This document shows, in pieces, positions 3,933 to 50,655 of a stretch of 54,081 bases of DNA. The notes under the pieces are model-generated. The model did no database searches. It worked only from the letters and a program-made list of their open reading frames with translations, and had not been told where the DNA came from. How positions within the stretch are numbered: position 1 is the first letter of the stretch; the number at the start of each line of letters is the position of its first letter. Source of the DNA: a virus. Taxonomy: Duplodnaviria; Caudoviricetes. The stretch spans positions 1 to 54,081 of IMG/VR virus record IMGVR_UViG_3300023179_000140. One strand, written 5' to 3'. The position numbers and the translations under genes are program-made.

Positions 3933-4275
3933 GCGCCTCATCAACTGCACCGCCCGCGAAATCCGCGCCTACCAGGCCGGGGGGCGGGTGCTGAGAAGGC
4001 GGGTGAAGCAGCAACCACAGCCAAATAAAGGCAAGGGGCTTGCTCCTGTACGGCCCTACCTCACATCAATGGCGAAGTGGACGTGGGTACTGGCTGCTAC
4101 CGGAATGGGCGATGGGACGACTGGGTTTTACTCCCCCTTCGGCTCCCCCGGCGATCGGCTAGTGTTAGTCCCGCGCGGGTGCCGAGGCCAGTATTGTTAC
4201 GAGGCCACCGTCCGCGCCGTCCGAGTTGAGCAGAGCGACGGCGTGTGGTGGTGGGTAGCGGAGGTGGAGGGATGA
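3916..4275 (+). CDS. ASCH/PUA-like phage protein, shortened
   Basis: IRAYQAGGRVLRRRVKQQP…SPFGSPGDRL resembles the 'RAILDGRKTQTRR…KPQP…PYGQPGDRL' family. Confidence 0.5.
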   Translation: MANQTERLINCTAREIRAYQAGGRVLRRRVKQQPQPNKGKGLAPVRPYLTSMAKWTWVLAATGMGDGTTGFYSPFGSPGDRLVLVPRGCRGQYCYEATVRAVRVEQSDGVWWWVAEVEG

Positions 4276-5165
4276 AGGCACCGTTTCCATGGGCCGGCGG
4301 AAAATCACGGGTGGCCGCTGAAGTTTGGGACCGCTTCGGCGACGTGGCGAATTACGTGGAACCGTTTTTTGGTTCCGGCGCGGTGCTACTGAACCGTCCA
4401 ACCTCACCCGGCACAGAGACTATAAATGATCTCGATTGCATGGTGGCCAACTTCTGGCGGGCGCTTCAGCATGATCCTGATTCGGTAGCCTTCCACGCGG
4501 AGAATCCAGTCAACGAAGCAGACCAACACGCGCGGCACCTGTGGCTTTGTTCACAGGCCGAATTCCGCGAAAAGATGAAGGTAGACCCGGATTATCACGA
4601 TGTCAAGATCGCAGGATGGTGGGTATGGGGCCAATGTATTTGGATTGGTTCGGGGTGGTGTGCGGTGCAGCTTCCCCACCTTGGGGACGCGGGGAAGGGG
4701 GTACATCGTAAGCGTCCCCACCTTGGGAACGCGGAAGAACCGATCTACGCTTACATGCGTGAGCTTGCGGCGCGGCTGCGGCGCGTGCGTGTCTGCTGTG
4801 GCGATTGGAGCCGAGTTCTCGGGCCTTCTGTTACCTTCAAACACGGAATTACCGGAGTGTTCCTAGATCCGCCATACGCGGACACAGCAGGCCGGACGGC
4901 TGATCTGTACGCCTCGGACAGCTTAACCGTTGCGCACAACGTCCGAGAATGGGCCATTGCCAACGGCGATAACCGAGACCTGCGCATTGCGCTCTGCGGC
5001 TACGAAGGCGAGCACCAGATGCCGGATTCGTGGGCGTGCCTAGCATGGAAGGCGGCTGGCGGGTACGGCAACCAAGGCGCGGAAAACAAGAATGCGGCAC
5101 GTGAGCGCATTTGGTTTAGTCCGGCGTGTTTGAAACCGCAGGGTACCTTGTGGAGTGCGCAATGA
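4272..5165 (+). CDS. DNA N6-adenine methyltransferase (D12/Dam class)
   Basis: PFPWAGGKS, YVEPFFGSGAV (SAM binding), INDLD, FLDPPY (catalytic). Confidence 0.92.
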   Translation: MKAPFPWAGGKSRVAAEVWDRFGDVANYVEPFFGSGAVLLNRPTSPGTETINDLDCMVANFWRALQHDPDSVAFHAENPVNEADQHARHLWLCSQAEFREKMKVDPDYHDVKIAGWWVWGQCIWIGSGWCAVQLPHLGDAGKGVHRKRPHLGNAEEPIYAYMRELAARLRRVRVCCGDWSRVLGPSVTFKHGITGVFLDPPYADTAGRTADLYASDSLTVAHNVREWAIANGDNRDLRIALCGYEGEHQMPDSWACLAWKAAGGYGNQGAENKNAARERIWFSPACLKPQGTLWSAQ

Positions 5166-5371
5166 AATGGGGCTGGCAGCAGATCGACGCGAACAACTAC
5201 CGCTACGACAAAACATGGTCCGTCCAGCGAGACTTGGCCAGCGGCAAGTGGTACGCGATGCGGGACGGGAAGTACTGCTTGGCGGATTTTTCGGACGCGG
5301 GCGGTGCTATGCACGAAGCGGATCTACTGAGGGAGGCGGACAAGCTGTATGCGAAAACCGATAGCGATTGA
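5162..5371 (+). CDS. hypothetical protein
   Basis: ATGA coupling to the adenine MTase. Confidence 0.6.
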   Translation: MKWGWQQIDANNYRYDKTWSVQRDLASGKWYAMRDGKYCLADFSDAGGAMHEADLLREADKLYAKTDSD

Positions 5372-6251
5372 CTTGTTTTGCGGCCTCGGTGGTTGGTCTG
5401 AAGGCTTACTATCTCAGGGGTACGACGTGACAGGCTACGACATTGAGGCGCATGAATACGGCGACCAAAAGTATCCCGCTACGCTAGTTCTACGGGACGT
5501 GTTGACAATCCACGGCAGCGAGTTCAAGGATGCCACCCTCATCGTGGCGTCCCCGCCTTGCCAAGAGTACAGCTACATGGCCATGCCATTTAAGCGAGGC
5601 AAACAAATCGCGGCGGCGCTTCGAGGGCAAGGTGAATTTCCAGAGGGTTATACCGGATCTCGCACGGTTGAGCAACTCAACGCACTGTTCAACGCCTGTT
5701 TCCGTATCCAACGGGAGACATCCGAAACGACTGGGCATTACGTACCCATGGTTGTTGAAAACGTGAAAGGGGCGCAGCCGTGGGTGGGGAATGCGAAAGC
5801 GAACTTCGGATCGTTCTACCTGTGGGGCGACGTGGATATGGTGGGGGACAGGATTTACGCCGGAAATCTGAAAATGGGGAGCGGGGTTAAGGCGGAGCGA
5901 CGGGGGCAGAAGATGAACCCAGACGGCACAGCACACGGGCATGGATCATGGTTTAAGGTGGCGGATTCGAAGAATCGCGGGGTTAAGGTACTCAACTCTA
6001 CTAAGAACACGGGCGGCAGTTGGTTTGCAATCGGATCTCCTGGGCAGACTGAGTTGAGCATGAATCCAGTCAACGGCACAAAAGGGAATGGCTCGTGGTT
6101 TGGTAGGTACACAGAAGCAAAGGCAGATGGCCGTGGAGTATCAAGTCGATACACGTCAAGCAAATCCCACGCCCGCAAAGCCGCATCCGCGCAGATCGCA
6201 AAGATACCTTTTGCGCTGTCCGAGTACATAGCAAAGGCGTACCTCCCATAA
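5349..6251 (+). CDS. DNA C5-cytosine methyltransferase-like protein
   Basis: DLFCGLGG (motif I), SPPCQ (motif IV), ENV (motif VI); C-terminal half atypical. Confidence 0.85.
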   Translation: MRKPIAIDLFCGLGGWSEGLLSQGYDVTGYDIEAHEYGDQKYPATLVLRDVLTIHGSEFKDATLIVASPPCQEYSYMAMPFKRGKQIAAALRGQGEFPEGYTGSRTVEQLNALFNACFRIQRETSETTGHYVPMVVENVKGAQPWVGNAKANFGSFYLWGDVDMVGDRIYAGNLKMGSGVKAERRGQKMNPDGTAHGHGSWFKVADSKNRGVKVLNSTKNTGGSWFAIGSPGQTELSMNPVNGTKGNGSWFGRYTEAKADGRGVSSRYTSSKSHARKAASAQIAKIPFALSEYIAKAYLP

Positions 6252-6281
6252 AACAAAGCCCCTAGGCTTGCGCCCAAGGGC
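6250..6281 (-). terminator. Rho-independent terminator ending the late operon
   Basis: Minus strand GCCCTTGGGC-GCAA-GCCTAGGGGC-TTTGTTTT: 10-bp stem with G-U pairs, GNRA loop, U tract; lies between convergent genes. Confidence 0.85.
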
Positions 6282-6307
6282 AAAAGGAAAGAGGAAGAGG
6301 TTCACCA

Positions 6308-8929
6308 CTATTGTACTGTAATCGGGAAGTTCTCTCCAGCCGCAACCACGACATCGCCGCTAGTCAGATACTCCACCCGCATCTGCGCCGCCGTTCCCTG
6401 GCGCGTGTCTAACCCGGTGACAGTACACGGCGACGACGTGCAGGTCGTTGCCGCCGTGGTGCCGTTGGGCAGTGTCACGGTGGCCCGCATCTTCGCAGCG
6501 CTGGGCGGTGCGCCGGTCAACGTGTAGCTCACGGAGACGGATGCTGATACCGGCGTGATGTTGGCGTTGGTTGAGCCAAGACGATGGACTAGGTATTGCC
6601 AATTTCGGCAAGACTGACCATAGAACTTTCCGTTGCTGGATGTGGATGTTAGCATCCCGTATTGGCCATCCGCCCCCGTCCCGATCCACTCACCCATCAT
6701 GGCGGACCAAAGATTGTCGCCGGCCGCCAGAATTGGAGCCGACGCGCCCAACAGATACGTCATGCCGTAGGCGTCAACCGCAAGGTCGTTTTGCTGCCTT
6801 TGCCCTTGAATGTCCGTGTCGGAGGAGCACCCGGTACCAGTGTCCCCATTGGCGTAGTAGTTCGAGTAGACCACACGGCGGGCTTGAAGGTTGCCGAACG
6901 ATCCGGTACAGGTGAAGGCTGGCGTGATGCGGGCGGCGTTGGTCAAAACGTAGTTGCCGTAGTCCTGGATAACGGAAGCTGTCAGCGTCGTCTCTATGGC
7001 GGCACGATAGATCCTGACCATCGCCTCCATGAAGATGCCAGAATGCCAAACGATGTCTCCGTAGCCGAACAGTGATGCGTCCCCGGACTCGTACCGATAC
7101 CCGCCGTTCAACACCGTTGATGCCACAGCCTTTGCGTAAAGCTCGCCGCTCGTTCCCGTGCCTACCATCGGCGTTGTCAGCGTGACTTGCGTGTTAGAGT
7201 CTACGGACTGGATGACGTATTGCTTGTTGCTGTCCGCGCCGTCGTAAAACGCGATGCTCTGCCCTGCCGTGAAAAACGATAGGAACCCCGTCCCGCTGCC
7301 GGTAATGATCGCCGATCCGTTGGACGCGCTGATCGTCCCGGCCCCGGTGGTGTAGGCGTTGGTGCATTCAAACCGCGTGGTTCCGGTGAGACACTGAAGG
7401 CCCCGCGCGTAGTTGGTCATTTCGGTGACCAGCCGCGCCGCGTACGCCGTCCTAGTGGCCGGTGTCGGGTGAGCAACGGCTATCCCAGTCGCAGCCATGA
7501 ACGCATAGCCGGACTCGCGGAGGCCGAAGTACGGCGACGTGTAGCCGTTGTCGGTGCCTCTTTGTTCAACGTAAAGATCGAAATAATAATTGGCGTAGGC
7601 GGTGTAGCAAGTCCACTTCAGGCCCCCTGCCAGTTCGCCTGTTTCGTACGCACGAATCATCAAGCCTTGGATGCTGGCGTTTCTCGGTGCGAGCCAATTC
7701 GACGCCCCGCATGTCCCCGCTGTTGCCTGTGCCGCCCAAATCTGCGAATACCATTTATCGGCACATGCCCGCGCCGCCGTCTGGAATCTTGTCAATCCGG
7801 TGCGGTAGTAGTTCTGGTACTGTGCAAGACACGAATCATAATAGTTCTGTGCCTCCGTCGATGTGAAGGCGTTTGTGTAGTTCACCGTATCCGCGATCCA
7901 ATAATCACCCATTGTGCGGCGGTTCCGTTCGGCCCACGCCCACTCTTGAACACCAGCCGCCAGCATGTCACCCAACATCAGACCGATGGTGGAATCCGGT
8001 ACAACGACAACGCCCGCCGCGTTCGTGGCCACACTGCCAATCGTCAAAGAGGTTACCCCCTTCACGCCGTTGATAGTGGCCTCACAAGTAAGCGAGTATT
8101 GCCCGAACCCAGCGTTCCAGGTGACGGTGGGTGCCGAGGCGGTCGCGCTTGAGAACGACACTGATAGCGGTGGTGCCCCCTGTTGCCTCCACTTGTAGCT
8201 GTCCGCGTTGGTCCCGGCGCATGTCGGCGTGAAAGTGCTATTGCTGCGCACTGTCAACTCCTCGCCTACTATCGGGACGACTGGCGTTGATGGGTAGGTC
8301 GGCGATCCAGTCATAGTCAGATTCAGCCCGGTGGGGCTGCTGTCCGTGCCGCCGCCTTCGAACTCGTAATCCAAAAGGTTGCCGCCCGTGATGTTGGTAG
8401 GCATGGCACTATCCCGCGCTACCGTAGTTGAATACACCCGCAGCCACGCAAGGCCCGCAGGGACGCCGGTGCTGCCTCCGCTGCCATTGTGGAGCACGTC
8501 GAGTGGCGTGTTATTGAGGCTGATATTTGAAACGGTCGCCGCGACGAACTGTCCTCCGTTGTACGTTGCCCCGGTCGCCGCCCAGCTTTCGATGGTCCAC
8601 ATGGTTGTATTCCATTGAACTCTGACGATGACATCGCTTTGCGAGGCTGGGATAGTTGTGGAAATGGCCGGGGAGCCGCTGTCATAGAAGCTGGTGCAGG
8701 TAATGTTGCCAGCATTTTTACTGCACAGTAATGACCCGGCGTCCAGAATACGCCCCGTGCTGGTCCAATCGTGCAGGCGGAACTCGATTCGCACCTGCGT
8801 CATGTTCGTCCATGGCGTGGTGTTGGGGAGCGTGGCGGTGCCGTACTTGCCGCTGGCCCCTTGCAGGGAACGGTACGGGGCCTGAGCGAATAGGCAGGAC
8901 GACGCGATCATGAATAGGGCAAGTCTCAT
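6308..8929 (-). CDS. signal-peptide-bearing multidomain protein (LamG-like, Ig/PKD-like, helical enzyme-like core, beta-barrel insert); putative receptor-binding or glycan-active protein
   Basis: MRLALFMIASSCLFA|Q N-terminus; 'GLAWLRVY…LLDYEFE' LamG-like ending; 'SYKWRQQ…GQYSLT' PKD-like segment; Tyr/Trp-rich helical core. Confidence 0.6.
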   Translation of the reverse strand: MRLALFMIASSCLFAQAPYRSLQGASGKYGTATLPNTTPWTNMTQVRIEFRLHDWTSTGRILDAGSLLCSKNAGNITCTSFYDSGSPAISTTIPASQSDVIVRVQWNTTMWTIESWAATGATYNGGQFVAATVSNISLNNTPLDVLHNGSGGSTGVPAGLAWLRVYSTTVARDSAMPTNITGGNLLDYEFEGGGTDSSPTGLNLTMTGSPTYPSTPVVPIVGEELTVRSNSTFTPTCAGTNADSYKWRQQGAPPLSVSFSSATASAPTVTWNAGFGQYSLTCEATINGVKGVTSLTIGSVATNAAGVVVVPDSTIGLMLGDMLAAGVQEWAWAERNRRTMGDYWIADTVNYTNAFTSTEAQNYYDSCLAQYQNYYRTGLTRFQTAARACADKWYSQIWAAQATAGTCGASNWLAPRNASIQGLMIRAYETGELAGGLKWTCYTAYANYYFDLYVEQRGTDNGYTSPYFGLRESGYAFMAATGIAVAHPTPATRTAYAARLVTEMTNYARGLQCLTGTTRFECTNAYTTGAGTISASNGSAIITGSGTGFLSFFTAGQSIAFYDGADSNKQYVIQSVDSNTQVTLTTPMVGTGTSGELYAKAVASTVLNGGYRYESGDASLFGYGDIVWHSGIFMEAMVRIYRAAIETTLTASVIQDYGNYVLTNAARITPAFTCTGSFGNLQARRVVYSNYYANGDTGTGCSSDTDIQGQRQQNDLAVDAYGMTYLLGASAPILAAGDNLWSAMMGEWIGTGADGQYGMLTSTSSNGKFYGQSCRNWQYLVHRLGSTNANITPVSASVSVSYTLTGAPPSAAKMRATVTLPNGTTAATTCTSSPCTVTGLDTRQGTAAQMRVEYLTSGDVVVAAGENFPITVQ

Positions 8930-15375: not shown

Positions 15376-18300
15376 TTATTTCTGTTTAGCCCTGCGCTCG
15401 GCAATCGCTTCCAGGACTTTATCGGTCAAAATCTTTTTCTCTTGGAATGGCTCAAGGATGGCGACCGCTTCGTCCTCGCTCTTTCCTTTAATCAGGCCGA
15501 GAAAATATTCCGCTCGCTCGTCGGCGCTCTTGTGAAGAAGGTATCGATCTGACTTGCTCAGTCCCGACTGTTCTCCCTGTACCATTTTAGCGATATAATC
15601 TTCTGTTTCCTCACTCATGGTGCCATTATCTAGGGCCTCAATCATGCGCCGCTCGCCCTCTACCCTGTCGTCCTTCCAAGCGTTGAACAATTCCCGCGCC
15701 ATCCGCATGTTCGGGGCCTTTTCTTTTGCGATGGTTTGCGACGCCTCGTCGATAGCCGCCATCTCGCGCTCGTCGGTCGCGCCGCCACGGGCTTGAAGCG
15801 CACGCCGGCCAAACGCTTGCGCAGTGGACTCGCCGCCGACCGGCACTTTCCGCAGGTAGTCGAGCACGGCATTATTGCCTGGAATGGCGTCAGCCACACC
15901 TTTGCGGGCTCGGTCCACGACGTTTAGGACCTGCGGTGCGACAGTGCCAAGGTGGCCCTTGATCATGTGGTCTACCTTCAACGGAGCCGCACCGATGGCA
16001 TCTCCGATCATCTGCGCCGTCCCGCTGGTGGAGTCGAAGCGCTGTTCGGATGTTGGGAGCGAAAGCATCCGCTGCGGAACGATATCACGGTTCGTGAAGA
16101 AATTCTTATTGACCGACACCTCAACGGCGGGCTTAGCTGTCATCGGCACAAACTGGCCCGCCATCTGTTCGCCGGTCCCGGAGATCGGGTTGAGATAGTT
16201 GTAGACGGCGGCAAGATATTCTTGGGCCTTTACTGGATCGCCGCCGTACTGCGCTTCGATGTTCCGGCGCACCAACGTGCCGACATCGCTGATCCCAGGA
16301 GCCATCGGTAGTTTAATCGCGTCGTATGTGCCTCTGCTGTTCTTCTTCGGATTCTCCGGCAACCAAATTAGAGACTTGTCTTTCTCCCACGGCTCAATAT
16401 CTTCCCACGCCTTCCGTTTCTCCGGCGTGCTGATATTGTGCAGTGTGGCGATAGCCACCGGGATCGCCACCGTCATAGCTGCTCTGGTCGCAAACCCCAC
16501 CGGGTCCTTGCGCATCGCGCTGATCGAACTTCGAGTACCCTGGATGCCAGCGTTGGCGTATGGGAATAGGACCATCAGGCCGCGCTTATAGTTGCCGCCC
16601 CGGTAAAAGTCGCCGGTGGCCTGGCGTGATGCCTTGGCGGCGGTAGCAGCGGCGTCTTGCTCTCCCATCCCTCGCTTGATCGCCTCAGCCTTGGCGATGC
16701 GGTATGCCTGCATGCGGGTCATGTCTTCCGTCATGCCGATGAAGTTCTCGACATCGCGCCAACCGCCGCGAAGGGCGTTTGTGACGCGGCTTGTGCCGGA
16801 CTCAAAACGATGCGTGCGCGCCACGCTCTGATTCGGAAGCGTGGACTCATCCCGAAATACATTCCCGAGGGTGTTGTATTTCTGAGCCCGGATGTCGCGC
16901 ACCCCAAGGAGCGGTTGCTCCCGGTACAGGTCGAACGAGTTGCCGCCGCCACCGTTCCAAACCATCTCGTCGTACATGCCGTTGCGGGCGGAGACGTAGT
17001 TGTCGCCCACATCGCGGATCGCCTGAAGCGTGGCCTTAGCAATATCCATGTGGATGCCGGTGAGATCACCGATCTTTCCGGCTATCGACTTGGACCCTGG
17101 ATTCGCCTTCTCCGCCATGCGGTCCACGCTTATTTGGTTCAAGTGCCGCGTCGCTTGGTCGCGCGTGAAATTGTATAGCGCGAATATCGGATTGATGCCA
17201 GTGGTACCGACCTTGAACGCCCGCACCGCCCCGCCAAGAATCTGCTGAAGCAAGCCCATGCCCTGCGCGTCCAAACTCTTGGCTGCCCGAACGTACTCAA
17301 CCGGCGCGGCAACGTGCTGGGCGTTGCCGTTCTCAAGGTAGGTGAAGTACTGCTCCGGCTTCATCTTCTCGGCAGTCTTTGCGGAAATGCGGCGGATGAA
17401 CTTGTCGCCACCGGGAAGGTCGCCATATTGCGCGGCAGTGCGGGCGGCTTCGTTCTGCGCCGCCTCCCGGATCACTTGGTTGGTTTTTTTGAGAAGGTTC
17501 TCTAGCGGGCTATCAATCGCCAGTTTGTCTGAGCCCTTGAGCTTTTGAATGACATTCGTGGACGACTTGCTGGCCGTCGCGCGCGTGTTCTGAAACGGCT
17601 CCACCCCTTCCGGCATAATGCGGTGAAGATCGGCGTAGTCTGGATACATCTTTCGGAGATTGTCAATTTCTGCCTGACTTTTTATCCCCGACTGCACCAT
17701 CATATCCTCAAGCGCGGTGACGTGATTCTTGACGGCATCGAGATGCTGCTGGTACTTCGGCGTGAACTCAGCGATAAGCGCGTCGTCCTTCAGGATTTCA
17801 TCCGGTTCTCGGCCCAACTCAATCTGTCCGCGCTCCTCCAGCCGCGCGATCTCTTTCATCGCTCGCTCGGCGGCGGTCTTGCTCCCTGATTGCTTTGCCG
17901 CAGCGTAGGATGTTTTGGCAGCGGCAAGGTCAGCCGCGTTCTGCGCATTCGTGCGGTCAATCTCAGCGGCTCGACGGGCCAGCAAAAGCCGGTCGAACCC
18001 CTCCACGTCCATCTGCGTCGGCAAGTTTTGGATGGCCTTCGTCAGTCCGGTCTTCTTGGCGAAGACTCCGGCGCGGGAGTTGGCTCGATAGACGTTCGCT
18101 ACCGCCCGATCAAATTCCATGCTGGGGCGAATGGAGTAGGTGTCATTGTCGCCTTTGATGATCTCCCGGTGAACGTCTTCCATGGGAGCTATCGCGTCCA
18201 CCAAATCCGGCCGCAATCCATGCCAGTACAACTGAAGCAGCGACGGCTTAGACGCTTGCATTGCCCGTCGTGCGGCCTCTCGCTTGGCCACCTGTTCGGA

Positions 18301-20436
18301 GACGTGTAGTTCAGACGGCGTGAGCGGCCTGCCGGGATTGGCGAACGGCTTCCACGAACCAGCCTCGCTGCTGCGCCGGTTGTACTTGGCGCGGGCCTCT
18401 CGCCGTGCCTTCGGGTCCTGCGATGACATGCCGTCAATAATGGCGTTATCTTGCGGCGATAGTGTGTCCGGGTCCATGCCCAGCGTGCGGGCGATCTTGG
18501 CGCGTGCGGCGGCTCGCTGTGCTAATGGATCGGCTGGGGCTGGGGCGGCTGGTTTGGGTTGCGGAGCCTGGGGAGCGGCGGAGCCAGGCACGCCTTTATC
18601 CGTAGACCACGACACGCCGATATAGGTTCGGCCATCACCGTCGGTCACCATCTGATCACGCTTATAATCGTCAAGTAGGGACGGAGCGTCGTGTTCGTGC
18701 AACACAATATCGCCATTACGGCTTGCTTCGAGCATGGCGGCGTCAAAGCGGTCCTTTGGCAGACCAGAAGCCGCCCTGACATCCTCAACCAGCACCGCTT
18801 CTCCAACTCGCCCAGAAGCACCGCGCATGGCGTTCCGGACGATTTGGCTGTCGGGGAGGTTGGGGGATGGAGGCGGCTCCGTAGTTGGCGGCTGTGGCGC
18901 TTCCACGGCACGCTCCGCAACCGGCGCGGGCGGCGCTACCTCATGGGCATCTCCTGATGCTTGTCTGAGTTCGCTATTGACCCGATTTATAGCCCTTGAT
19001 CCATCTGCGCTCAGGAGATCTCCTTGAGTTGGCTTGATCGCATACCCATCTTTAGCCGCCTGCTTTATAAGAGATGAGCCAATTCCCGTTCTTTGGAACT
19101 CAGGCCTGACCGCAAGGTGAAGTATTCCACCGTCCATATTGCCCCTATACGGGCTATCCATTTTGATCGTTCCAACTACCTTTAATTCTCCAGATTGATC
19201 TCTAAACGCGGCGTAATAGTTACCTGGGGATGGGCTGGCCACAGGTTCTTCTTTAGGCGTCCACGGTCTAGTCCTGAAAATCTCTATTCCGTCTGGCCTA
19301 CCTAACGACGAAACTTGTTCGGAGTTTCCATCAATAACATGCCATGTATTCCCGTATCCAGAGTGTTTTTCTAAATATCGACTGCCGAGATTGTCGGTAT
19401 TGGGTCTGTAGTCGCCAACAGGCTGAACCGGCGCAACCTCCGGCGCAGGCGGCAACTCCATCGGAGCCTCCACCACCTTCGCCACTTTGTCGTAATTCTC
19501 CAGCAGCTTCGCCGTGCGGTCGTTGCCTTCAGCCACCTGTTCCGCAAACGGAGGCCTCGGCGTGGCAGGCGCAGTAACCCCTTCCTGCGTCGGCATCAGC
19601 GTCTTCGGCAACTCAAACCGATTCATCCGCGCCTGAGAGCCTTCTGCCGCCTCATTGACCATCTCTCGCCCTTGCTGGCGGGTACGGCGGTTTTCTCCCA
19701 GGCCATAGCCGATATCCATGGCCGCATCCATGTCACCAAGGATGCGTGGTCGCATGCGGGCCTGAACCTGCGGCGAAGTGCGGAAGTCTCGTACAGCGCC
19801 TTTTGCACCGAGCACGCCCAGCGCCGTCGTCCCGAGTAACTCGGTGACTGCCTGTGCCTTGTCGCCTGATGTCGTATTCTCGTCGGAGAACACATCCCTG
19901 ACACCCTTGACCTGCTCCGGCAGCGTCATCAACTGCTCGCCGGTAAACGCCGCGCCAATGCCCGCTTGGACCAGCTTGGGAGCCATGCCGATACCAGTGG
20001 CCATTGCAGCATTCAATGGGTTTATATTGCTGTTGATAAGATTGCCGACACCCCTTGCCGCGCCTTCAATTGCGCTCCCGCCTGTTTCCGCAAGATAATC
20101 TTTGACCCGTCTTTTAACCGGCTCGGTCTTCCATGAGCCACCGCCAACTTCAAGAGATCCAATGTTAGGTGCCCCGCCTTCGAGCGCAACATTGTCAAAA
20201 GTTGGAGTGGTGGCGAAGTCCTTCACCTTCTCCCACGTCGTCTTTTCGGCGCTCGTGACGCCGGGCATCCGCAATGCCCGGTTGAAATCCTGCGCTGGCG
20301 TGGAGGTTGGCTTGACCGTGGGCGCGACGACGTTGGGGAGTGGTGCGACCGAGCGCTTAGGCGCGGCGTATTCTTCCCACGGCTTAGGGCCGGAGTCTGT
20401 CGTTGTTGCGTATTCTTCCCACGGTCCCGCTGGCAT
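15376..20436 (-). CDS. large polyvalent internal virion (ejection) protein with a GNAT domain and LPD38-like C-terminus
   Basis: 1686 aa; LAVRPEFQRTGIGSSL acetyl-CoA motif; 'DFYRGG…FPYANAGIQG…PWEKDK…IKLP…NKNFFTNRDIVP…PLKVDHMIKGHLG' LPD38-like region. Confidence 0.8.
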   Translation of the reverse strand: MPAGPWEEYATTTDSGPKPWEEYAAPKRSVAPLPNVVAPTVKPTSTPAQDFNRALRMPGVTSAEKTTWEKVKDFATTPTFDNVALEGGAPNIGSLEVGGGSWKTEPVKRRVKDYLAETGGSAIEGAARGVGNLINSNINPLNAAMATGIGMAPKLVQAGIGAAFTGEQLMTLPEQVKGVRDVFSDENTTSGDKAQAVTELLGTTALGVLGAKGAVRDFRTSPQVQARMRPRILGDMDAAMDIGYGLGENRRTRQQGREMVNEAAEGSQARMNRFELPKTLMPTQEGVTAPATPRPPFAEQVAEGNDRTAKLLENYDKVAKVVEAPMELPPAPEVAPVQPVGDYRPNTDNLGSRYLEKHSGYGNTWHVIDGNSEQVSSLGRPDGIEIFRTRPWTPKEEPVASPSPGNYYAAFRDQSGELKVVGTIKMDSPYRGNMDGGILHLAVRPEFQRTGIGSSLIKQAAKDGYAIKPTQGDLLSADGSRAINRVNSELRQASGDAHEVAPPAPVAERAVEAPQPPTTEPPPSPNLPDSQIVRNAMRGASGRVGEAVLVEDVRAASGLPKDRFDAAMLEASRNGDIVLHEHDAPSLLDDYKRDQMVTDGDGRTYIGVSWSTDKGVPGSAAPQAPQPKPAAPAPADPLAQRAAARAKIARTLGMDPDTLSPQDNAIIDGMSSQDPKARREARAKYNRRSSEAGSWKPFANPGRPLTPSELHVSEQVAKREAARRAMQASKPSLLQLYWHGLRPDLVDAIAPMEDVHREIIKGDNDTYSIRPSMEFDRAVANVYRANSRAGVFAKKTGLTKAIQNLPTQMDVEGFDRLLLARRAAEIDRTNAQNAADLAAAKTSYAAAKQSGSKTAAERAMKEIARLEERGQIELGREPDEILKDDALIAEFTPKYQQHLDAVKNHVTALEDMMVQSGIKSQAEIDNLRKMYPDYADLHRIMPEGVEPFQNTRATASKSSTNVIQKLKGSDKLAIDSPLENLLKKTNQVIREAAQNEAARTAAQYGDLPGGDKFIRRISAKTAEKMKPEQYFTYLENGNAQHVAAPVEYVRAAKSLDAQGMGLLQQILGGAVRAFKVGTTGINPIFALYNFTRDQATRHLNQISVDRMAEKANPGSKSIAGKIGDLTGIHMDIAKATLQAIRDVGDNYVSARNGMYDEMVWNGGGGNSFDLYREQPLLGVRDIRAQKYNTLGNVFRDESTLPNQSVARTHRFESGTSRVTNALRGGWRDVENFIGMTEDMTRMQAYRIAKAEAIKRGMGEQDAAATAAKASRQATGDFYRGGNYKRGLMVLFPYANAGIQGTRSSISAMRKDPVGFATRAAMTVAIPVAIATLHNISTPEKRKAWEDIEPWEKDKSLIWLPENPKKNSRGTYDAIKLPMAPGISDVGTLVRRNIEAQYGGDPVKAQEYLAAVYNYLNPISGTGEQMAGQFVPMTAKPAVEVSVNKNFFTNRDIVPQRMLSLPTSEQRFDSTSGTAQMIGDAIGAAPLKVDHMIKGHLGTVAPQVLNVVDRARKGVADAIPGNNAVLDYLRKVPVGGESTAQAFGRRALQARGGATDEREMAAIDEASQTIAKEKAPNMRMARELFNAWKDDRVEGERRMIEALDNGTMSEETEDYIAKMVQGEQSGLSKSDRYLLHKSADERAEYFLGLIKGKSEDEAVAILEPFQEKKILTDKVLEAIAERRAKQK

Positions 20437-37348: not shown

Positions 37349-37779
37349 GATGTTGGTCCTTCTAGCGGAGGCGTAAAGAAGTCCCACCCGCTGTTGTAAT
37401 ACTCAAATCCTAATGTCGTTCTGGTGTTTGCGGTTGTGCCGACCAGTTGCGCGTTTCTATTGCGAACGGTAGACGGCAGGTTGAACTCCCAACCTCCAGT
37501 ACCGTCTTGCGTGACGTGAAGGAAGAACCGGGTCCCCTCCGGTATGGACAGCCCGCCGTTGATGACGAACTGACTGCTGAAGACATTGCCGGTCAGCGTG
37601 ATGTACTGAGACAGACCATTGGCCAGATCGAACGTCGGACTGGATGAGTATGCGACCGTTGCCACCGCTTCCAAGGGGTCATTGTCAGCAATCCACGTTA
37701 GATCTCGGGTGGCCGGGAATAACCCGAAGCCGACCATATTCCGTTTACTCGATGCTGCCAAGAAGTTTTTGAAGCTCAC
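37345..37779 (-). CDS. fibre-tip-like beta protein
   Basis: FDLANG…ITLTGN…LHVTQDGTGG motif of the kind seen in phage fibre distal domains. Confidence 0.6.
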   Translation of the reverse strand: MSFKNFLAASSKRNMVGFGLFPATRDLTWIADNDPLEAVATVAYSSSPTFDLANGLSQYITLTGNVFSSQFVINGGLSIPEGTRFFLHVTQDGTGGWEFNLPSTVRNRNAQLVGTTANTRTTLGFEYYNSGWDFFTPPLEGPTS

Positions 37780-39665
37780 GTGATGTACACTCCGGCGTTT
37801 GCGCCTCGTCCGATCCGGAACCCTCTAACGGTCTTTTTACCAAGCCTGTCGGCGATGAACGGGCGGGCCTGGAATTTCTGCTCTTCCGTCATACCTGGGT
37901 AGCGGTCAAGTTCCGCGTCAATGCGGTTGGCCAGTGGGGTCTTGATCTGCTGGAATAGGTTGGTCGCCTCGGCGGCGTAGCGGAAGGCGTCTCTAACGTC
38001 GTCGTGTAACTGAACGATGTCTTTGTTGCCGCGTTTTGGAGAAGCGATGTCTTCCAAATCGTTTGGCGAACTTACGGCGCTTTCAATGGCATCCGGCAGG
38101 TACCGCAGCCGGGAGGATATCTGAAGCCTCGGAAGCGCTTCCTGTTTGCCGTCGAACTCTTGCCGGTACTTGAAGAACTCGTGAGCGTCTTTTGCCGCCA
38201 GGTCCATCGCATACTGATGATCGTATTGCGACAAGTCCGGGGCCGCTACCGACTCCCACGACATCAAATTCCGGATGCGATCCCAGCCGTGGTGCCGGCG
38301 GTTTGACGAGCGGCGTAACGGCATTTTCGATTCCGTCCGGATCAGCAAGCGGGCGTCGAAGTCGGTGTTGTCGGTGTCTTCCTTCGAAAGAATTTCGCTG
38401 GAACCGGCACCGAATATCTCCATGATTCCGTCGCGAATATTTTCGGCCGTCGTGCCGAAGCTATCCCGGCGCTGCTCGATTGCGTCCGGGGAGATGAATA
38501 CCGGAATGACGGGGGCCGCGCCGCATGCCTTCAGGCCGGTCATATCGGGAACGCACCACCGGGCTAACACTGCGCCCAATTCCAGCGATCCAAGACCTTT
38601 TTGAACCAACTCATCAATCACCCACACCCGGCCATCTGGAGACATGGCGACTTTCAATGCTGCGAAATAGTGAGAGAAACCCCAGTCAAGGCCGATAAGC
38701 CTCGGCCACCACGGTTGGATCACCACCTTCCCTGCGTCGAATATGTGGCACGCATTTGGCGGTTCGCCGTTACGCGGCTGCCGCCGGAACTCGAAGAACT
38801 TGCCGCCCGCCGCATCCCAGTCACCCTCCAGGTATGCGGCGCGAAGAGATGGGTTGCTGATCGTTGCAAGACGGGCTTGGTATGTCGGATCTTTTTCGAT
38901 AAACGCCGGGTTCCCCGACATCTTCCAGTGATAGTAGACCCGTTCAATGTACGTCCGCTCTTTGGTGAGTGGGTTAATCAGCGGGATCTTGATAACCTCG
39001 CCCGCCTTATACATCTTGCCGTTCTCGTCGTACTGCTTGATAAACCGCTCTTTAACCCACGGCAATCCGGGACCTTCCGGGTTGCAAGCCAGAAGGATCT
39101 GAGCCCGCATTTTCTTGTGCGGCGAGCGGATGGAGGAGAAGACCTTTTCGTACACTTCCATGCTCGGCTCGAACGTGATTTCATCCCAGAACAGTCGGGT
39201 CAGCGATTGTCCAGTGAGGCGCTGATACGACTCGCTGTCAGCCATGTGAGTCAGCGTGATCTTTGCGCCGGACTTCCACGTAAACTCGCGCGGCTGAGTG
39301 GTGTATGTCGCACCCAGTAGGTCACCCTTAGTACCGTACACGCGCTTGGCGTCTTCGATCCAGGAGTTCAAATCGTCGCTGTTTTTACGAACAACTGCGG
39401 CACGGAAAACAGGGTTGTTGACATACAGGATATCAGTTTGATCTTTGAGTTTATCCGGCACGTCAAGGTTGCCACGAACAAGCCAAACGATGCTGGCGGT
39501 CGTTTTCCCGGTACCCTTTTCACCGCTAATTAGCGTTTCGAAATAATACCGATGCTGTAGGTCGGATTGCTGCCCTTCCTGCATGACGATAACCGAATCC
39601 GACTGCTCGCGAATGCGGTCAATCTCGGCTTGGCTCGATACTGTTGCGAATCCGGTTTGAGCCAT
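37776..39665 (-). CDS. terminase large subunit
   Basis: ISGEKGTGKT (Walker A), LFWDE (Walker B), LACNPEG, GLDWGF and HDDVRDAFRY (nuclease). Confidence 0.93.
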   Translation of the reverse strand: MAQTGFATVSSQAEIDRIREQSDSVIVMQEGQQSDLQHRYYFETLISGEKGTGKTTASIVWLVRGNLDVPDKLKDQTDILYVNNPVFRAAVVRKNSDDLNSWIEDAKRVYGTKGDLLGATYTTQPREFTWKSGAKITLTHMADSESYQRLTGQSLTRLFWDEITFEPSMEVYEKVFSSIRSPHKKMRAQILLACNPEGPGLPWVKERFIKQYDENGKMYKAGEVIKIPLINPLTKERTYIERVYYHWKMSGNPAFIEKDPTYQARLATISNPSLRAAYLEGDWDAAGGKFFEFRRQPRNGEPPNACHIFDAGKVVIQPWWPRLIGLDWGFSHYFAALKVAMSPDGRVWVIDELVQKGLGSLELGAVLARWCVPDMTGLKACGAAPVIPVFISPDAIEQRRDSFGTTAENIRDGIMEIFGAGSSEILSKEDTDNTDFDARLLIRTESKMPLRRSSNRRHHGWDRIRNLMSWESVAAPDLSQYDHQYAMDLAAKDAHEFFKYRQEFDGKQEALPRLQISSRLRYLPDAIESAVSSPNDLEDIASPKRGNKDIVQLHDDVRDAFRYAAEATNLFQQIKTPLANRIDAELDRYPGMTEEQKFQARPFIADRLGKKTVRGFRIGRGANAGVYIT

Positions 39666-45119: not shown

Positions 45120-45478
45120 AAGCCTCTGACATCAGCGACGAAAGCGTCTATCAGTTAATGAAGCGGGCAATTCAGTACAACCAGAAAAGGTGTGGTGTTG
45201 GATGTGTATTTGCTAATCCACTTCAACTCACACCGCCGGGCGGACGGATTCCTCCAAAGGTATTTGCCGCTAAAATTCGGAGAATGGTTAAAAAGGGAAG
45301 GCTTAGGCTTGCCCCTGCCGGACTAACATTTGAGTTTTGGGAGGACTTCAATGTTCTCGGGGACTGCTTAATGCTGCCAGAGAAAGAAATGCAGGTGGTT
45401 GACGTTGAAGTCACCGCCGATGAACTATTGGCGATCATGGGAGGTCGGTATGTCCCGCTGGCGAACGAACGGCACTAA
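45116..45478 (+). CDS. hypothetical protein (winged-helix-like)
   Basis: MKASDISDE…PPKVFAAKIRRMVKKG. Confidence 0.6.
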   Translation: MKASDISDESVYQLMKRAIQYNQKRCGVGCVFANPLQLTPPGGRIPPKVFAAKIRRMVKKGRLRLAPAGLTFEFWEDFNVLGDCLMLPEKEMQVVDVEVTADELLAIMGGRYVPLANERH

Positions 45479-45626
45479 AATCTGCAAACAGTGCAAGTAT
45501 AAAGGGCCTATGGAGGAGTTCTCGCGCTTCAACCCGCATCTCTGCTGGGCTTGCTGTGACCAGCCGTTCACCGGCACGCCGTCCACGAACCCGGTTCATT
45601 TGCCGGGGTGGATGTGGGAGAAGTGA
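45450..45626 (+). CDS. small Zn-finger protein
   Basis: KICKQC…EF…CWAC; GGAGGT RBS. Confidence 0.55.
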   Translation: MSRWRTNGTKICKQCKYKGPMEEFSRFNPHLCWACCDQPFTGTPSTNPVHLPGWMWEK

Positions 45627-47036
45627 GTGAGCCGCATCCAAGTAGTCTCCCAGGTCGGCATCACCTCCATCGGCTTCGACGAGGCCAGGTTACACGTTGA
45701 CATCGACATGCGACCGACCGACTCAGAGGGTGATTGGCTTCAGCGCCGGGGCCGGTGCGGGCGGGCATACCCAGCTATCAACGGGAACCGGGACTACCAG
45801 GAAACCGGCATTGAGGCGATGCGGCGAGAGCTTGCGGCAAAGCGAAACCCGGTCTATGTGCTCGGGTGTGGCGGCGGCAAGAGCTATATGGCTGGGATGG
45901 TTGCGGCGGCGGCCGGAGCGAAAGGACGCAGCGTCGGGCTGCTTACCGTGCGGCGGGTTTTGGTGGACGACATCAGCAATCGGTTTTCGGCAATGGGCGT
46001 CCAGCATGGTGTCATTATGGCTGGCCGACAGGACAACGAGCACCGCTCGAAGGTCGCCAGCGCCCACACGGTCGCAGCACGCAATCTGACGCTAAACGTT
46101 GACGTATTGTTCGTAGACGAGGGGCATCAATACGTTGCCGGTGAATTCCGCGCCATTCTTGATCGGCACGCCAATATTCCCCGTGTCATCCTCACGGCGA
46201 CTCCGATCCGGGCAGACGGGCTGGGGCTTGGTCGTATCGCCGACTCGATCATCCTGGGGCCGACGACGCAGGAGTTGATCAACCGTGGCTTCCTTGTGCC
46301 TACACGAATCTTTTGCCGCCACGCTCCCGACGTGTCGCAGCTACGGCGCAACAGTTCGGGAGAGTTCAATGAACGTGAGAACGAAGAGGTGATGGGCCGG
46401 TCTGAAATCGTCGGCGATTGCGTGAAGGAGTGGTTGTACCGGGCTAGGAATTTGCCGACCATCGTTCACGCCGTGTCCATTAAGCACTCTCTGGCCATCG
46501 TCAAGCGCTTCCAGGGCGCTGGTGTCAATGCGGTTCACGTGGACGCTGATACGCCGGACGATGAGCGCAAGCGAGTCTTCGACGATATGTGCCGCGATGC
46601 GCCACCGAAGAAGCACAGCCTGTTGATTGACTTGGCCGGCAACAGTTTACGATTTGGATTTCCGGAAGATCATCGCGAATGGTCGCTTGACGACTGGGAC
46701 CCAACGGAGCCCAAGCCTGCGGCCCTCGCCATTCGCCGCTGCGAGCAGTGCTGGTGCGTCTTTCGCACAACGAAGCCGGAATGTCCACAATGCGGCGATC
46801 CGTATGTCCCGACGCAACGGGAGATCAAAGAGCGAAAAGCGGAACTTGTCGAGCGGCAGCGAGAGGCGAAAGACGCCGCCGTTGAACGCTGGCGCAAGTC
46901 GCAAGGCGACGACGAGCGGCGGGCGCGGTACATGGCGCTGGTTGAAAAGGCGAGGACGATGGGATACAAACCGAACTGGGCGGCTGTTATGCTGAACAAG
47001 ACAACCGGCCATTGGCCAAAGAAAGAGTGGAAATGA
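45627..47036 (+). CDS. SF2 DEAD/DEAH-like helicase with permuted motif order and a C-terminal Zn ribbon
   Basis: RDYQ, GGGKS, DEGH, TATP; QRRGRCGR (motif VI) at the N-terminus; CEQC…CPQC. Confidence 0.88.
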   Translation: MSRIQVVSQVGITSIGFDEARLHVDIDMRPTDSEGDWLQRRGRCGRAYPAINGNRDYQETGIEAMRRELAAKRNPVYVLGCGGGKSYMAGMVAAAAGAKGRSVGLLTVRRVLVDDISNRFSAMGVQHGVIMAGRQDNEHRSKVASAHTVAARNLTLNVDVLFVDEGHQYVAGEFRAILDRHANIPRVILTATPIRADGLGLGRIADSIILGPTTQELINRGFLVPTRIFCRHAPDVSQLRRNSSGEFNERENEEVMGRSEIVGDCVKEWLYRARNLPTIVHAVSIKHSLAIVKRFQGAGVNAVHVDADTPDDERKRVFDDMCRDAPPKKHSLLIDLAGNSLRFGFPEDHREWSLDDWDPTEPKPAALAIRRCEQCWCVFRTTKPECPQCGDPYVPTQREIKERKAELVERQREAKDAAVERWRKSQGDDERRARYMALVEKARTMGYKPNWAAVMLNKTTGHWPKKEWK

Positions 47037-47389
47037 GCGCAAGCACCGACCTTACCAACCGGCTGATGTTGGCGATCCAAGAGTCAGTTCCTGGATGCCG
47101 TATCTGGCGGCAGAATACTGGAGTTGCGTACCCGATATCCATGGTTGACGGCGGCCGGCTCAAGCCAAACGCGAGGCCGGTGAAGTATGGAGTACCGGGC
47201 GTGCCGGATATTATCGGCGTGCTGCCGGATGGCCGGTGGCTGGGGGTCGAGGTCAAGGTTGGCCGGGATAAGCAGAGCGAGCAGCAGCTCAACTTTCAGT
47301 CAATGCTAGAGCAGCGAGGTGGCGTCTATGTCGTCGCCCGTGACCTCGACACCGCCGTGGCTGAGGTTAAGCGGCGGGTGTGCAAGTAA
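47033..47389 (+). CDS. VRR-NUC (PD-(D/E)xK) nuclease
   Basis: RQNTG…GVPDIIG…GVEVK…QSEQQLNF…GGVYVVAR. Confidence 0.85.
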   Translation: MSASTDLTNRLMLAIQESVPGCRIWRQNTGVAYPISMVDGGRLKPNARPVKYGVPGVPDIIGVLPDGRWLGVEVKVGRDKQSEQQLNFQSMLEQRGGVYVVARDLDTAVAEVKRRVCK

Positions 47390-47989: not shown

Positions 47990-48514
47990 ATGTCGCAAAA
48001 GCGCCCAGTTGGAAGACCAAAGATCATCACACCTTGCCCGCTGTGCAAGAAAAGAATGGGCCGGGCGTTGCTCCGGGTTCATATCGCCAGATGCGGAAAT
48101 AACCGGGAGATGATCTCGGCGAAGGACGAGTGTTTAATGCTTCTTGAAAAGGCATTCTCCATGGAACCGCGCCTGTGCTACGAGGGGATTGGCGTCGATG
48201 ATGGAACCGGCAACCGGGCCTTTCGAGGCCGGAAGTTTATAGAAAGCCAAGACCGGCTGGAGAGCGAGTTCGAGCAGTTGATCGCCTGCGAAGAATGGCT
48301 TGTCCCGCAGCACCGCAAGAGAGCAATCAACAAAAAATTCAGCTCATATAAGCTGAAGCACATCGTTGAGCACACAAAAAACAAACACGTCTCAAATGGC
48401 GCTCTGTGTGCGATGGCAATTGGCCTGGAGTTCAAATACGAGGTAGACGGGCCGAATATCTACATCAACATCTCCAACGATTTGTACGATTACGACGGCA
48501 CGCCGACGGCCTGA
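47990..48514 (+). CDS. C2HC Zn finger fused to a primase-adjacent 'SSYKLKH…VSNG' domain
   Basis: GRPK…CPLC…HIARC; SSYKLKHIVE…HVSNGAL. Confidence 0.65.
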   Translation: MSQKRPVGRPKIITPCPLCKKRMGRALLRVHIARCGNNREMISAKDECLMLLEKAFSMEPRLCYEGIGVDDGTGNRAFRGRKFIESQDRLESEFEQLIACEEWLVPQHRKRAINKKFSSYKLKHIVEHTKNKHVSNGALCAMAIGLEFKYEVDGPNIYINISNDLYDYDGTPTA

Positions 48515-48516
48515 CT

Positions 48517-50655
48517 ATGACACCACAGAAATTTATACCAGCATCAATCCCGCATGATCTCGCGGATCTTGATCAATGGGTAGTTTGGGGTAATGACCCA
48601 GACTCTGGTAAAGCAAAATGCCCATTCAACGCCGAAAAAGGCTACAAAGCATCATCGACCGACCCAAGCACTTGGACAGATTGCCAAACAGCGCTGGATG
48701 CGGCCAAATCATCCGACCTATACCTTGGAGTTGGAGTGGTTTTGTATGCGCAGGACCCATTCTGCGGCATTGACTTGGATGACTGTCTTGATAGCAAGCA
48801 GCAGCCAAAGCCATGGGCCGTTGAGATTTTCCGTCGCTTCGGAGAAACCTACGCTGAGATAAGCCCATCTGGGACCGGCGTTAAGTTCTGGTGTAGAGCG
48901 TCTATACCATCGTCACGAGTATTCAGGTATGGCGACGGGCAGATTGAAATATACTCCCAGTCCAGGTACTTCACTGTCACCGGGAACCGCTGGAGGACAT
49001 CCACGTCTGAAATCCTCGACTGCCAAGCAACTGTAGATTGGCTTCAAACACTTGACCCAAAGAAGAAGAGTGGGCCTTTCCGGCTTCCAGGCCAGATAAT
49101 AAAAGGCTCGCAACACAAGACCCTTATCTCTTATGCCGCGTCTCTTTGGGCAAAAAACTTAGATCAAGATGAAGTCAGACAGCTAACTATTTCCGCATCG
49201 AAAAGATGCCAAGAGGTCCCACCAGAGCAGCACGCGATCAATATTGCGAACTGGATTATCGCAAACCGTCGTCGCGGGTATTCGGAAGAGGTAGAAGCTA
49301 AGCTAAATGGCAAATCGCCAAAGGACTATACGTTTGCTGGTGAAGAAGATGGCCACCCTTCGCCGCCGGAACTAGCCGAAGAACCAGACGAAACCCCGTT
49401 AGATTTCGTTCCATGGCCGGAGCCGCTGTCAGAATCCGCCTTCCATGGGCCACTTGGTGATCTATGTAAAATTATTGAACCAGAGACAGAAGCCGACATT
49501 GCGGCGGTACTTTTTCAAGCAATCGTGATGATCGGGAACGTCTTTGGCCGTGGTGTTCACTTCATGGCCGAGGGGACGCCTCACTTCTGCAACGAATTTG
49601 TCGGAATCGTCGGAGCCACCGCGAAGGGCCGCAAGGGTTCCAGTTTCGGACAGGTAAAGTCGGTCATCAATTCCATCGCCCCTGAGTGGGCCAGCAAGCG
49701 CACGAAGTCCGGCCTCACGTCCGGAGAGGGCCTGATCTTCCACGTCCGCGACGAGATCCGGGAGATCAAGCAGCAAAAAGGCCAGATGGTTGAGGTTGTC
49801 ACGGACGCCGGCGAGTCCGATAAGCGCATGCTGGTCGTAGAAGAAGAACTGTCAAGCGCCATTAAAGCCATGTCGCGCGAGGGGAACACGCTTTCCGGCG
49901 TACTCCGTCAGGCCTGGGACAGCCCGATGGTGCTGGCCCCGATGACCAAGAACAACCGGATTACCGCCAGCCACCCCCACGTCAGCATTATCGGGCACAT
50001 CACGCGGGATGAACTGCTGAAGAACCTGAAGGCCGTCGAGAACACCAACGGTAATACCAACCGGTTCCTGTGGTGCTGCGCAAAACGCGCCAGGCTCCTG
50101 CCTTTCGGCGGGAATCCTAACAGAGCGGCTCTGGCCGAGGTCGCGCAACGCATTGATTTTGCAGTCGGTTGGGCGCAAACCGTGAAACAGGAGATCACCT
50201 TCGACGCCGAGGCGTCGGAAATGTGGGAGATCGTCTACGAAGAGCTTGGCAATATCCCAGGCGGCACGGTTGGGGCCATTTTATCCCGCGCCGAGCCTCA
50301 TGTCCGCCGGATTGCCATGATTTACGCCGCTCTCGACCGCAGCGCGATGATAAAGCCGGAGCACTTGGAGGCAGCGCTGGAGATTTGGCGCTATTCGGCT
50401 GCCTCTGTCCAGTGGATTTTCGGCGGAACCGACTCCGGGGAGTCCGTTCAGAGCAAAACGGCCGATAAAATCGCGAAATTCATCGATTCCAAGCCGGAAG
50501 GGTGCTGCCGACGAGATATCGCGCAGTACATGGGCGGCAAAACAAAGGCCGCTGAAATCGAGTATCACCTATCCCAGATGCTGAGCAACGGAAAGATCAT
50601 CTGCAAGCCAGAAAACAGGGCCAGGAAAACCGTGGATTACTACTACCGAGCCTGA
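48517..50655 (+). CDS. primase-polymerase (AEP) fused to a DUF3987-like ATPase/helicase domain
   Basis: QWVVW, ASSTDPSTW, GIDLDDC, EISPSGTG, EIYSQSRYFTVTG; C-terminal GATAKGRKGS, SGEGL, EELS, LRQAWD, NRFL. Confidence 0.88.
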   Translation: MTPQKFIPASIPHDLADLDQWVVWGNDPDSGKAKCPFNAEKGYKASSTDPSTWTDCQTALDAAKSSDLYLGVGVVLYAQDPFCGIDLDDCLDSKQQPKPWAVEIFRRFGETYAEISPSGTGVKFWCRASIPSSRVFRYGDGQIEIYSQSRYFTVTGNRWRTSTSEILDCQATVDWLQTLDPKKKSGPFRLPGQIIKGSQHKTLISYAASLWAKNLDQDEVRQLTISASKRCQEVPPEQHAINIANWIIANRRRGYSEEVEAKLNGKSPKDYTFAGEEDGHPSPPELAEEPDETPLDFVPWPEPLSESAFHGPLGDLCKIIEPETEADIAAVLFQAIVMIGNVFGRGVHFMAEGTPHFCNEFVGIVGATAKGRKGSSFGQVKSVINSIAPEWASKRTKSGLTSGEGLIFHVRDEIREIKQQKGQMVEVVTDAGESDKRMLVVEEELSSAIKAMSREGNTLSGVLRQAWDSPMVLAPMTKNNRITASHPHVSIIGHITRDELLKNLKAVENTNGNTNRFLWCCAKRARLLPFGGNPNRAALAEVAQRIDFAVGWAQTVKQEITFDAEASEMWEIVYEELGNIPGGTVGAILSRAEPHVRRIAMIYAALDRSAMIKPEHLEAALEIWRYSAASVQWIFGGTDSGESVQSKTADKIAKFIDSKPEGCCRRDIAQYMGGKTKAAEIEYHLSQMLSNGKIICKPENRARKTVDYYYRA

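Follow-up and report, generated by a model that had tools for sequence, protein, structure and literature searches.

RadD-like phage helicases of superfamily 2 with motifs V and VI placed ahead of the Q motif

Superfamily 2 (SF2) helicases are defined, detected and annotated by the collinear order of their motifs, Q-I-II-III-IV-V-VI, and the Pfam family Helicase_C is modelled as one contiguous domain. A protein that departs from this order is encoded at positions 45627 to 47036 of IMG/VR virus record IMGVR_UViG_3300023179_000140, a single linear viral record of 54,081 bases, referred to throughout as the window, which CheckV estimates to be 86% complete. The protein, designated P0001 in the protein set assembled for this analysis, carries motifs V and VI at its extreme N-terminus, before the Q motif. 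Among P-loop NTPases, the circularly permuted GTPases of the YlqF/RsgA type form a clade with reordered nucleotide-binding motifs that is still active. These GTPases represent a true circular permutation of one domain in another NTPase class, whereas in P0001 the relocated piece is internal and the C-terminal part keeps its position (B-A-C, not B-C-A), adding a second link between domains. Full-text literature searches, which leave out most subscription papers, returned no permuted or rearranged SF2 or P-loop helicase.

The best solved relative of P0001 is RadD of Escherichia coli (Protein Data Bank entries 6JDE, 7R7J, 8H5Y and 8H5Z), both by sequence (phmmer E 1.9e-7, aa 55-319 on RadD 6-294) and by fold (Foldseek E 8e-15, template modelling score 0.49), and P0001 possesses the two RecA domains that characterise it. 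According to passages of the structural report on RadD, the enzyme begins with a pair of RecA-like domains, after which come zinc-binding elements, including two zinc fingers termed ZF1 and ZF2, and a C-terminal domain (PMC9049331); two further reports describe its interaction with SSB and its acceleration of RecA strand exchange (PMC10238739, PMC8887467). RadD comprises 586 aa in canonical order and bears two zinc fingers, whereas P0001 comprises 469 aa, begins with motifs V-VI and bears a single conserved four-cysteine cluster. P0001 is a distant relative of RadD and not its orthologue.

Closer to P0001 are the canonical RadD-like helicases of phages and prophages (phrog_16; for example P0038, P0040, P0125, L001, L011 and L013), which are 30-41% identical to it across RecA1, the RecA2 parts, the four-cysteine cluster and the C-terminal helices, and which belong to the same length class (~455-485 aa) and fill the same profile columns. 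In these helicases motifs V-VI lie, collinear with the rest, between ...ER....-G and PGK..AIILDHAGN; in P0001 the corresponding 47 residues are N-terminal.

The layout of the gene is given below, all on the + strand. Conservation counts out of 35 refer to an alignment of 35 permuted proteins (595 pairs), and secondary-structure elements (E, strand; H, helix) are those of an AlphaFold2 model.

45627..47036 (+), whole helicase gene, a permuted RadD-like SF2 helicase in one open frame of 469 aa (phrog_16, phage DNA helicase in PHROGs, E 1.8e-56, aa 55-321 on profile positions 274-538 of 986; Pfam ResIII, PF04851, 39.8 bits on aa 55-195, above the cut-off of 22.5)
45633..45773 (+), moved segment B, aa 3-49, with the strand, motif V loop, strand and motif VI helix of RecA2 (canonical profile columns 285-331; Helicase_C positions 70-109 of 110; E6-9, E24-27, H34-42)
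45672..45680 (+), motif V core G16-F-D18 (G16 in 35/35; D18 in 30/35, N in the other 5)
45741..45764 (+), motif VI Q39-R-R-G-R-C-G-R46, of the form QxxGRxxR (Q39, G42, R43 and R46 invariant, 35/35)
45774..45788 (+), new linker AINGN, aa 50-54, from motif VI to the Q motif, flanked by P49 and G53 (linker identity 0.457)
45789..46331 (+), RecA1, approximately aa 55-235, its limit estimated from the modelled elements
45789-45800, 45870-45884, 46116-46127 and 46194-46205 (+), RecA1 motifs: Q motif RDYQ, Walker A GGGKS, DEGH and TATP, respectively
46332..46589 (+), first internal part of RecA2, approximately aa 236-321, with the strand of motif IV (matched by the canonical profile as far as column 281; E278-281, H285-297, E302-305, H311-321)
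46590..46616 (+), scar lacking segment B, aa 322-330, CRDAPPKKH (gaps in 45 columns that canonical relatives fill)
46617..46643 (+), last RecA2 strand and DLAGN, aa 331-339 (E331-335; K328 and D335 unchanged in all 115 sequences)
46740..46793 (+), four-cysteine zinc-ribbon-like cluster C372, C375, C386 and C389 (each invariant across 115 sequences)
46815..47006 (+), C-terminal helical domain, aa 397-460 (H397-425, H428-445, H451-460)

In the translation, residues 4-18, IQVVSQVGITSIGFD, form the motif V-like stretch and residues 28-46, MRPTDSEGDWLQRRGRCGR, hold motif VI; they are followed by RDYQ (55-58), GGGKS (82-86), DEGH (164-167) and TATP (190-193). The stretch DDERKRVFDDMCRD (311-324, ending ...DDMCRD) continues straight into APPKKHSLLIDLAGN (325-339), which places the junction at base 46598/46599 (D324/A325). 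The resulting order is V-VI-Q-I-II-III-IV, then the last RecA2 strand, the zinc ribbon and the helical tail. The Q motif, Walker A, DExH and motifs III, V and VI are thus all present with their key residues conserved, while the collinear order Q-I-Ia-II-III-IV-V-VI is broken, V-VI preceding Q. An earlier note, made from the sequence of the window, had listed these motifs at these places in one intact frame and had described the order as B-A-C; every listed element is found where it was placed within the 469-aa translation, and the order is exact, canonical columns 285-331 sitting before the Q motif with nothing replacing them at the old site.

The rearrangement can be followed column by column in a profile that was built from 174 canonical relatives (440-520 aa) and run against the permuted proteins. 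P0001 matches this profile in three pieces: columns 285-331 on aa 3-49 (independent E-value 1.5e-10), columns 12-281 on aa 54-321 (8.6e-90) and columns 327-469 on aa 322-467 (2.7e-36). The same pieces recur in the same order in 40 of 41 permuted proteins, all of these full-length, the fragment P0034 (324 aa) showing the first two only; across the set, the N-terminal piece (columns ~285-331) reaches independent E-values from 3.8e-7 to 9.7e-21. At the internal site, the columns of segment B have a mean occupancy of 0.052 across 40 permuted rows, compared with 1.0 for 195 canonical rows. The N-terminal and C-terminal pieces overlap by up to 5 columns (327-331 in P0001), which is not counted as evidence of duplication because the ends of local alignments are fuzzy. 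At the level of profile columns, the rearrangement is a clean cut and paste, with no loss or duplication beyond this fuzzy overlap of at most 5 columns.

The Pfam profile Helicase_C (PF00271) shows the split as well. In the canonical P0038 it matches contiguously (profile 15-108 on aa 241-334, 33.1 bits), whereas in permuted proteins the match divides: P0037 carries profile positions 68-109 at aa 4-45 (41.2 bits), and positions 15-62 fall on aa 296-343 in P0130. The earlier note had predicted that the match in the window's helicase would divide between aa 1-49 and about aa 260-325; the N-terminal piece is indeed found there, profile 70-109 of 110 falling on aa 6-47 (E 3.8e-4), while no second piece is found in P0001 and the internal piece is seen in P0130.

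Homologues with the same order, for which the earlier note had called, are numerous. A first homology search yielded 288 matches, and among the best 120, P0001-P0037 are 39-65% identical over 94-100% of the query, with lengths of ~470-540 aa except for two fragments. A motif screen of 264 proteins found 41 in which motif VI precedes Walker A and 205 in which it follows, with 18 undecided; all 41 share the layout of P0001, 40 of them full-length with the identical three pieces, although they diverge to ~33-40% identity and stem from separate contigs in four collections (ncbi, lgn, jgi and ena). An exhaustive search of representatives gave 14,441 matches at E <= 0.001, of which the best 150 include nine permuted representatives of 50%-identity clusters, each matching in one stretch from residue 2-5 (P0004, P0121, P0034, P0036, P0037, P0123, P0129, P0130 and P0146). 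P0001 shares the breakpoints of the rest of the clade, with V-VI N-terminal and no internal copy, and it falls inside the core clade. A scan of IMG/VR, restricted to the best 80 loci, added L081 on a 66,450-base contig (43% identity, match from query residue 4), the only one of these 80 loci whose open reading frame (ORF) was read; it is permuted and starts with ATG. Neither a protein search with aa 1-90 (12 matches among 36 candidates) nor a 26-row permuted profile (216 matches at E <= 1e-30, best 120 considered) revealed a new permuted member. The loci L001, L011 and L013 of the species-representative genomes, which match from query residues 3-4, were rejected as permuted; their ORFs are canonical, so tblastn had merged separate pieces.

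Members of the family vary outside the core. Some permuted proteins are ~50-70 aa longer, namely P0016 and P0021 (536-537 aa), P0037 (527 aa) and P0130 (537 aa), the last carrying an extra cysteine-rich insert (CQACRH...CPRCDC) in its C-terminal region that is possibly a second zinc element. Three canonical relatives of 789-822 aa (P0044, P0282 and P0295) carry intein or homing-endonuclease Pfam families (PF14890, PF05204, PF05203, PF14528 and PF07591), which suggests that inteins have invaded the family.

The moved segment is the best conserved part of the permuted proteins. Its mean pairwise identity (aa 3-49) is 0.593, the highest of all segments, followed by RecA1 with 0.570, the internal RecA2 part with 0.542 and the C-terminal region with 0.434, the whole protein averaging 0.531. 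Beyond the residues of motifs V and VI listed above, P49, G53, R55 and Q58 are invariant in 35/35, and G82, G84, K85, D164, E165, A191 and P193 are invariant in 115 sequences. As judged by this conservation, the order and the moved segment are under selection. R46 lies opposite Arg343 of RadD in a weak HMMER stretch (RadD 300-346 against aa 3-49; 0.6 bits, not significant alone), and Arg343 contacts a phosphate of ADP in the RadD-ADP structure, according to passages of its report (PMC9049331).

Phylogenetic trees were inferred from profile columns 13-281 and 333-469, the moved segment being excluded, in an alignment of 235 rows from which 29 of the 264 proteins were left out (length outside 430-560 aa or incomplete profile pieces). 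An IQ-TREE analysis (LG+C20, quick search) used 61 rows, comprising 26 permuted, 23 near canonical and 12 outgroup rows; 14 crown permuted rows were dropped for speed, and the outgroup was a random 12 of the 172 more distant canonical rows. The permuted rows all fall on one side of a branch, as a group nested among canonical rows, and a core of 25 of them has a support of 97. This tree is compatible with a single origin, the simplest reading being one clade nested among canonical phage helicases. An origin by tandem duplication and subsequent losses, which the earlier note had suggested, is plausible; an intermediate of the type B-A-B-C, with two QxxGRxxR copies, was found in none of the 264 proteins screened, a search that did not extend to 31 later-added proteins or to shorter and longer length classes, among which split or fused forms may occur. 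In the 75-aa ORF upstream of the helicase, Pfam and PHROG reveal no trace of a first copy of RecA1.

Structure prediction agrees with the profile evidence. AlphaFold2, run on P0001 with a 115-row alignment, gave a mean predicted local distance difference test score (pLDDT) of 92.6 and a predicted template modelling score (pTM) of 0.80, the first five blocks of 10 residues scoring 91, 71, 97, 91 and 92. The N-terminal elements are a strand (6-9), a three-residue helix (13-15), a strand (24-27) and a helix (34-42), and the model of the canonical P0038 (pLDDT 92.0, pTM 0.84) has a strand (294-297), a short helix (299-301), a strand (312-315) and a helix (322-331) with identical spacing. In P0038 these elements sit between flanking elements equivalent to those of P0001, where helix 311-321 is followed directly by strand 331-335. 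When residues 1-50 were docked against residues 236-345, the median score was 0.54 (0.54, 0.61 and 0.54), the best of 3 controls scoring 0.00; the runs agreed in at least 78% of contacts, with a partner pLDDT of at least 52. This is weak support: 58 of 80 solved complexes pass the mark, as do 2 of 110 mismatched pairs; passing scores of 0.60 or less came from only 7 of those 80 complexes and from both passing mismatches, and pieces of one well-known fold may pass by their likeness to solved structures. The segment is thus modelled confidently in the canonical strand, strand, helix pattern. Of the earlier note's expectation that aa 1-49 belong to RecA2, the alignment to RecA2 holds (Helicase_C and canonical profile), while their folding into RecA2 is predicted.

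The best explanation, and one we regard as quite probable, is that P0001 is an ATP-driven RadD-like SF2 DNA motor whose V-VI segment was relocated to the N-terminus and whose RecA2 domain is completed in cis. Under this explanation, a 47-residue piece of RecA2 with motifs V and VI would have been moved to the extreme N-terminus in the ancestor of the clade, and three separate stretches (aa 3-49, ~236-321 and 331-345) would come together as RecA2, with the first of them inserting two strands into its sheet. The arginines of motif VI would be presented to ATP held by the Walker A motif of RecA1, as in ordinary SF2 enzymes, and the short conserved linker (P49...G53-x-R55) would form a second covalent tie between the motor domains that should limit the opening of the cleft. 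The enzyme is predicted to be a RadD-like, DNA-dependent ATPase or translocase that serves the replication or recombination of the phage alongside a structure-specific nuclease. A functional, rewired RecA2 domain, as the earlier note had proposed, is supported indirectly by the order kept across the clade, the invariant catalytic residues and the confident AlphaFold2 model.

Whether the order is real, functional and of one origin can be weighed against three other readings. The record is metagenome-derived, and the only run holding the whole stretch is probably its own source, so that an assembly error, a chimera or an incorrectly called gene might be suspected; this chance is negligible, as the same breakpoints occur in 41 proteins of the motif-VI-first type on different contigs from four collections, the 66,450-base contig of L081 among them, and the reading frame is uninterrupted and has a Shine-Dalgarno-like GGGAG six bases ahead of its start codon. 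Additionally, the Logan assembly of the probable source run holds 45300-47200 in one 47,040-base contig (word depth 35.7) that matches the stretch without a difference or gap and shows neither joints nor loose ends, a check in which only the assembler is independent because the sample is the same. The misassembly that the earlier note had named as a threat to its claim is thereby rejected on both grounds, the shared order and the second assembler. A decaying N-terminal relic without a working V-VI, in an inactive protein or a scaffold that merely binds ATP, would fit the fact that nothing fills the canonical site of V-VI; it is nevertheless very improbable, because a relic would have drifted or been lost, whereas the segment is better conserved than any other and its four motif VI residues remain invariant across a clade diverging to ~40% identity. 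An independent second origin of the permutation in P0130 is unlikely: FastTree placed this protein apart, yet IQ-TREE does not require a separate origin, and P0130, whose identity to canonical P0125 (41%) is about the same as that to permuted P0036 (40%), shares its breakpoints and the RP[WF]PAP linker with P0036.

A more serious competitor to completion in cis, though still an improbable one, is a domain swap in trans, in which the segment completes RecA2 of a neighbouring subunit and the protein is an obligate dimer or ring. The linker from R46 to the Q motif (R55-Q58) is short and conserved, and the docking, in which the pieces fit as separate chains, is equally consistent with a swap. The confident AlphaFold2 monomer speaks against the swap, being well predicted throughout, with the strands and helix of the segment at pLDDT 91-97, and general knowledge of SF2 structures indicates that ~9-12 residues should be able to bridge motif VI and the Q motif when the ATP site is closed. 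Several results weigh against the relocation and completion in cis favoured above and temper its strength. With only 8-12 residues to connect them, motif VI and the Q motif might be held too close together for some conformations of the enzyme, which would favour insertion in trans. The position of aa 3-49 inside RecA2 is itself suggested by homology, by secondary structure and pLDDT, and by a single weak pass in docking. The Helicase_C match of P0001 (21.1 bits) lies under the curated cut-off of 23.5 bits and is not contiguous. The IQ-TREE branch uniting all permuted rows has a support of only 47, and FastTree, run on all 235 rows, gathers 39 of 40 permuted rows in one clade and sets P0130 beside a canonical row. 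Species-representative genomes, scanned for their best 80 loci, gave no permuted member, so the clade is known only from metagenomic and viral contigs, and no RNA run is among the listed runs that hold the stretch.

As a diverged clade under selection, these proteins would indicate that a two-RecA motor tolerates a non-circular rearrangement of its chain. It is somewhat better than an even chance that the clade is the first natural SF2 family with a permuted motif order, a RecA2 domain built from three stretches and doubly linked motor domains. If so, the extra tether, or a forced swap between subunits, would change how the ATP cleft opens and thereby alter the stepping cycle of the motor, making the clade a natural experiment on the inter-domain freedom that an SF2 translocase needs. 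The rearrangement would give mechanistic studies a naturally occurring form whose cleft is tethered twice. Rules of domain order and score cut-offs miss part of the helicase core here, and such genes may be annotated as truncated or as lacking a C-terminal helicase domain, because the Helicase_C match of P0001 falls below threshold.

The helicase gene lies in a replication module of the phage, and the window also carries the following genes.

45399..45626 (+), upstream 75-aa cysteine-rich ORF (CKQC...CWAC), in the same frame as the helicase, its TGA abutting the helicase start
47012..47389 (+), VRR-NUC nuclease gene (PF08774 24.1 bits; phrog_93 E 4.8e-14), overlapping the 3' end of the helicase by 25 bases
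48406..50655 (+), primase/helicase of 749 aa (phrog_3022 E 1.4e-41 for the N-terminal primase part; phrog_5311 for the C-terminal helicase part)
37776..39665 (-), large terminase gene
4245..5165 and 5349..6251, two adjacent DNA methyltransferase genes, D12-class N6-adenine (PF02086) and C5-cytosine (PF00145)

The helicase starts with GTG directly after the TGA of the upstream ORF (TGAGTG), and a Shine-Dalgarno-like GGGAG at 45616-45620 leaves a 6-base spacer to this codon; in the alignment, homologues start at the matching M-x-R-I/L-Q position. The upstream ORF, for which neither Pfam nor PHROG gave a match, is unrelated to the helicase and no part of it. Downstream, the VRR-NUC nuclease and the primase/helicase, the latter without a Pfam match at E <= 0.001, form with the helicase a replication and recombination block on the + strand from ~44 kb. 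At the L081 locus the helicase (5992..7431) is likewise followed, with a 4-base overlap, by an ORF at 7428..7820 in the VRR-NUC position, which was aligned by eye only. A VRR-NUC-like gene thus lies directly 3' of the helicase in 2/2 loci with DNA compared (the window and L081), which suggests that the helicase-nuclease pair is translationally coupled and conserved in the permuted clade.

The window has a GC content of 57.5%; a scan for tRNA genes found none in it, nor was a terminal repeat of at least 20 bases found. Run X2, from a second freshwater study, contains two identical pieces of 55 and 151 bases (45300-45354 and 46691-46841) that bridge neither junction; the phage of the window, or a very close one, probably occurs elsewhere, and these short pieces were used neither as support nor as evidence of habitat. 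Both methyltransferase genes match only the N-terminal parts of their Pfam profiles. Within the structural module, a very long ORF of 1686 aa extends over 15376-20436 on the - strand.

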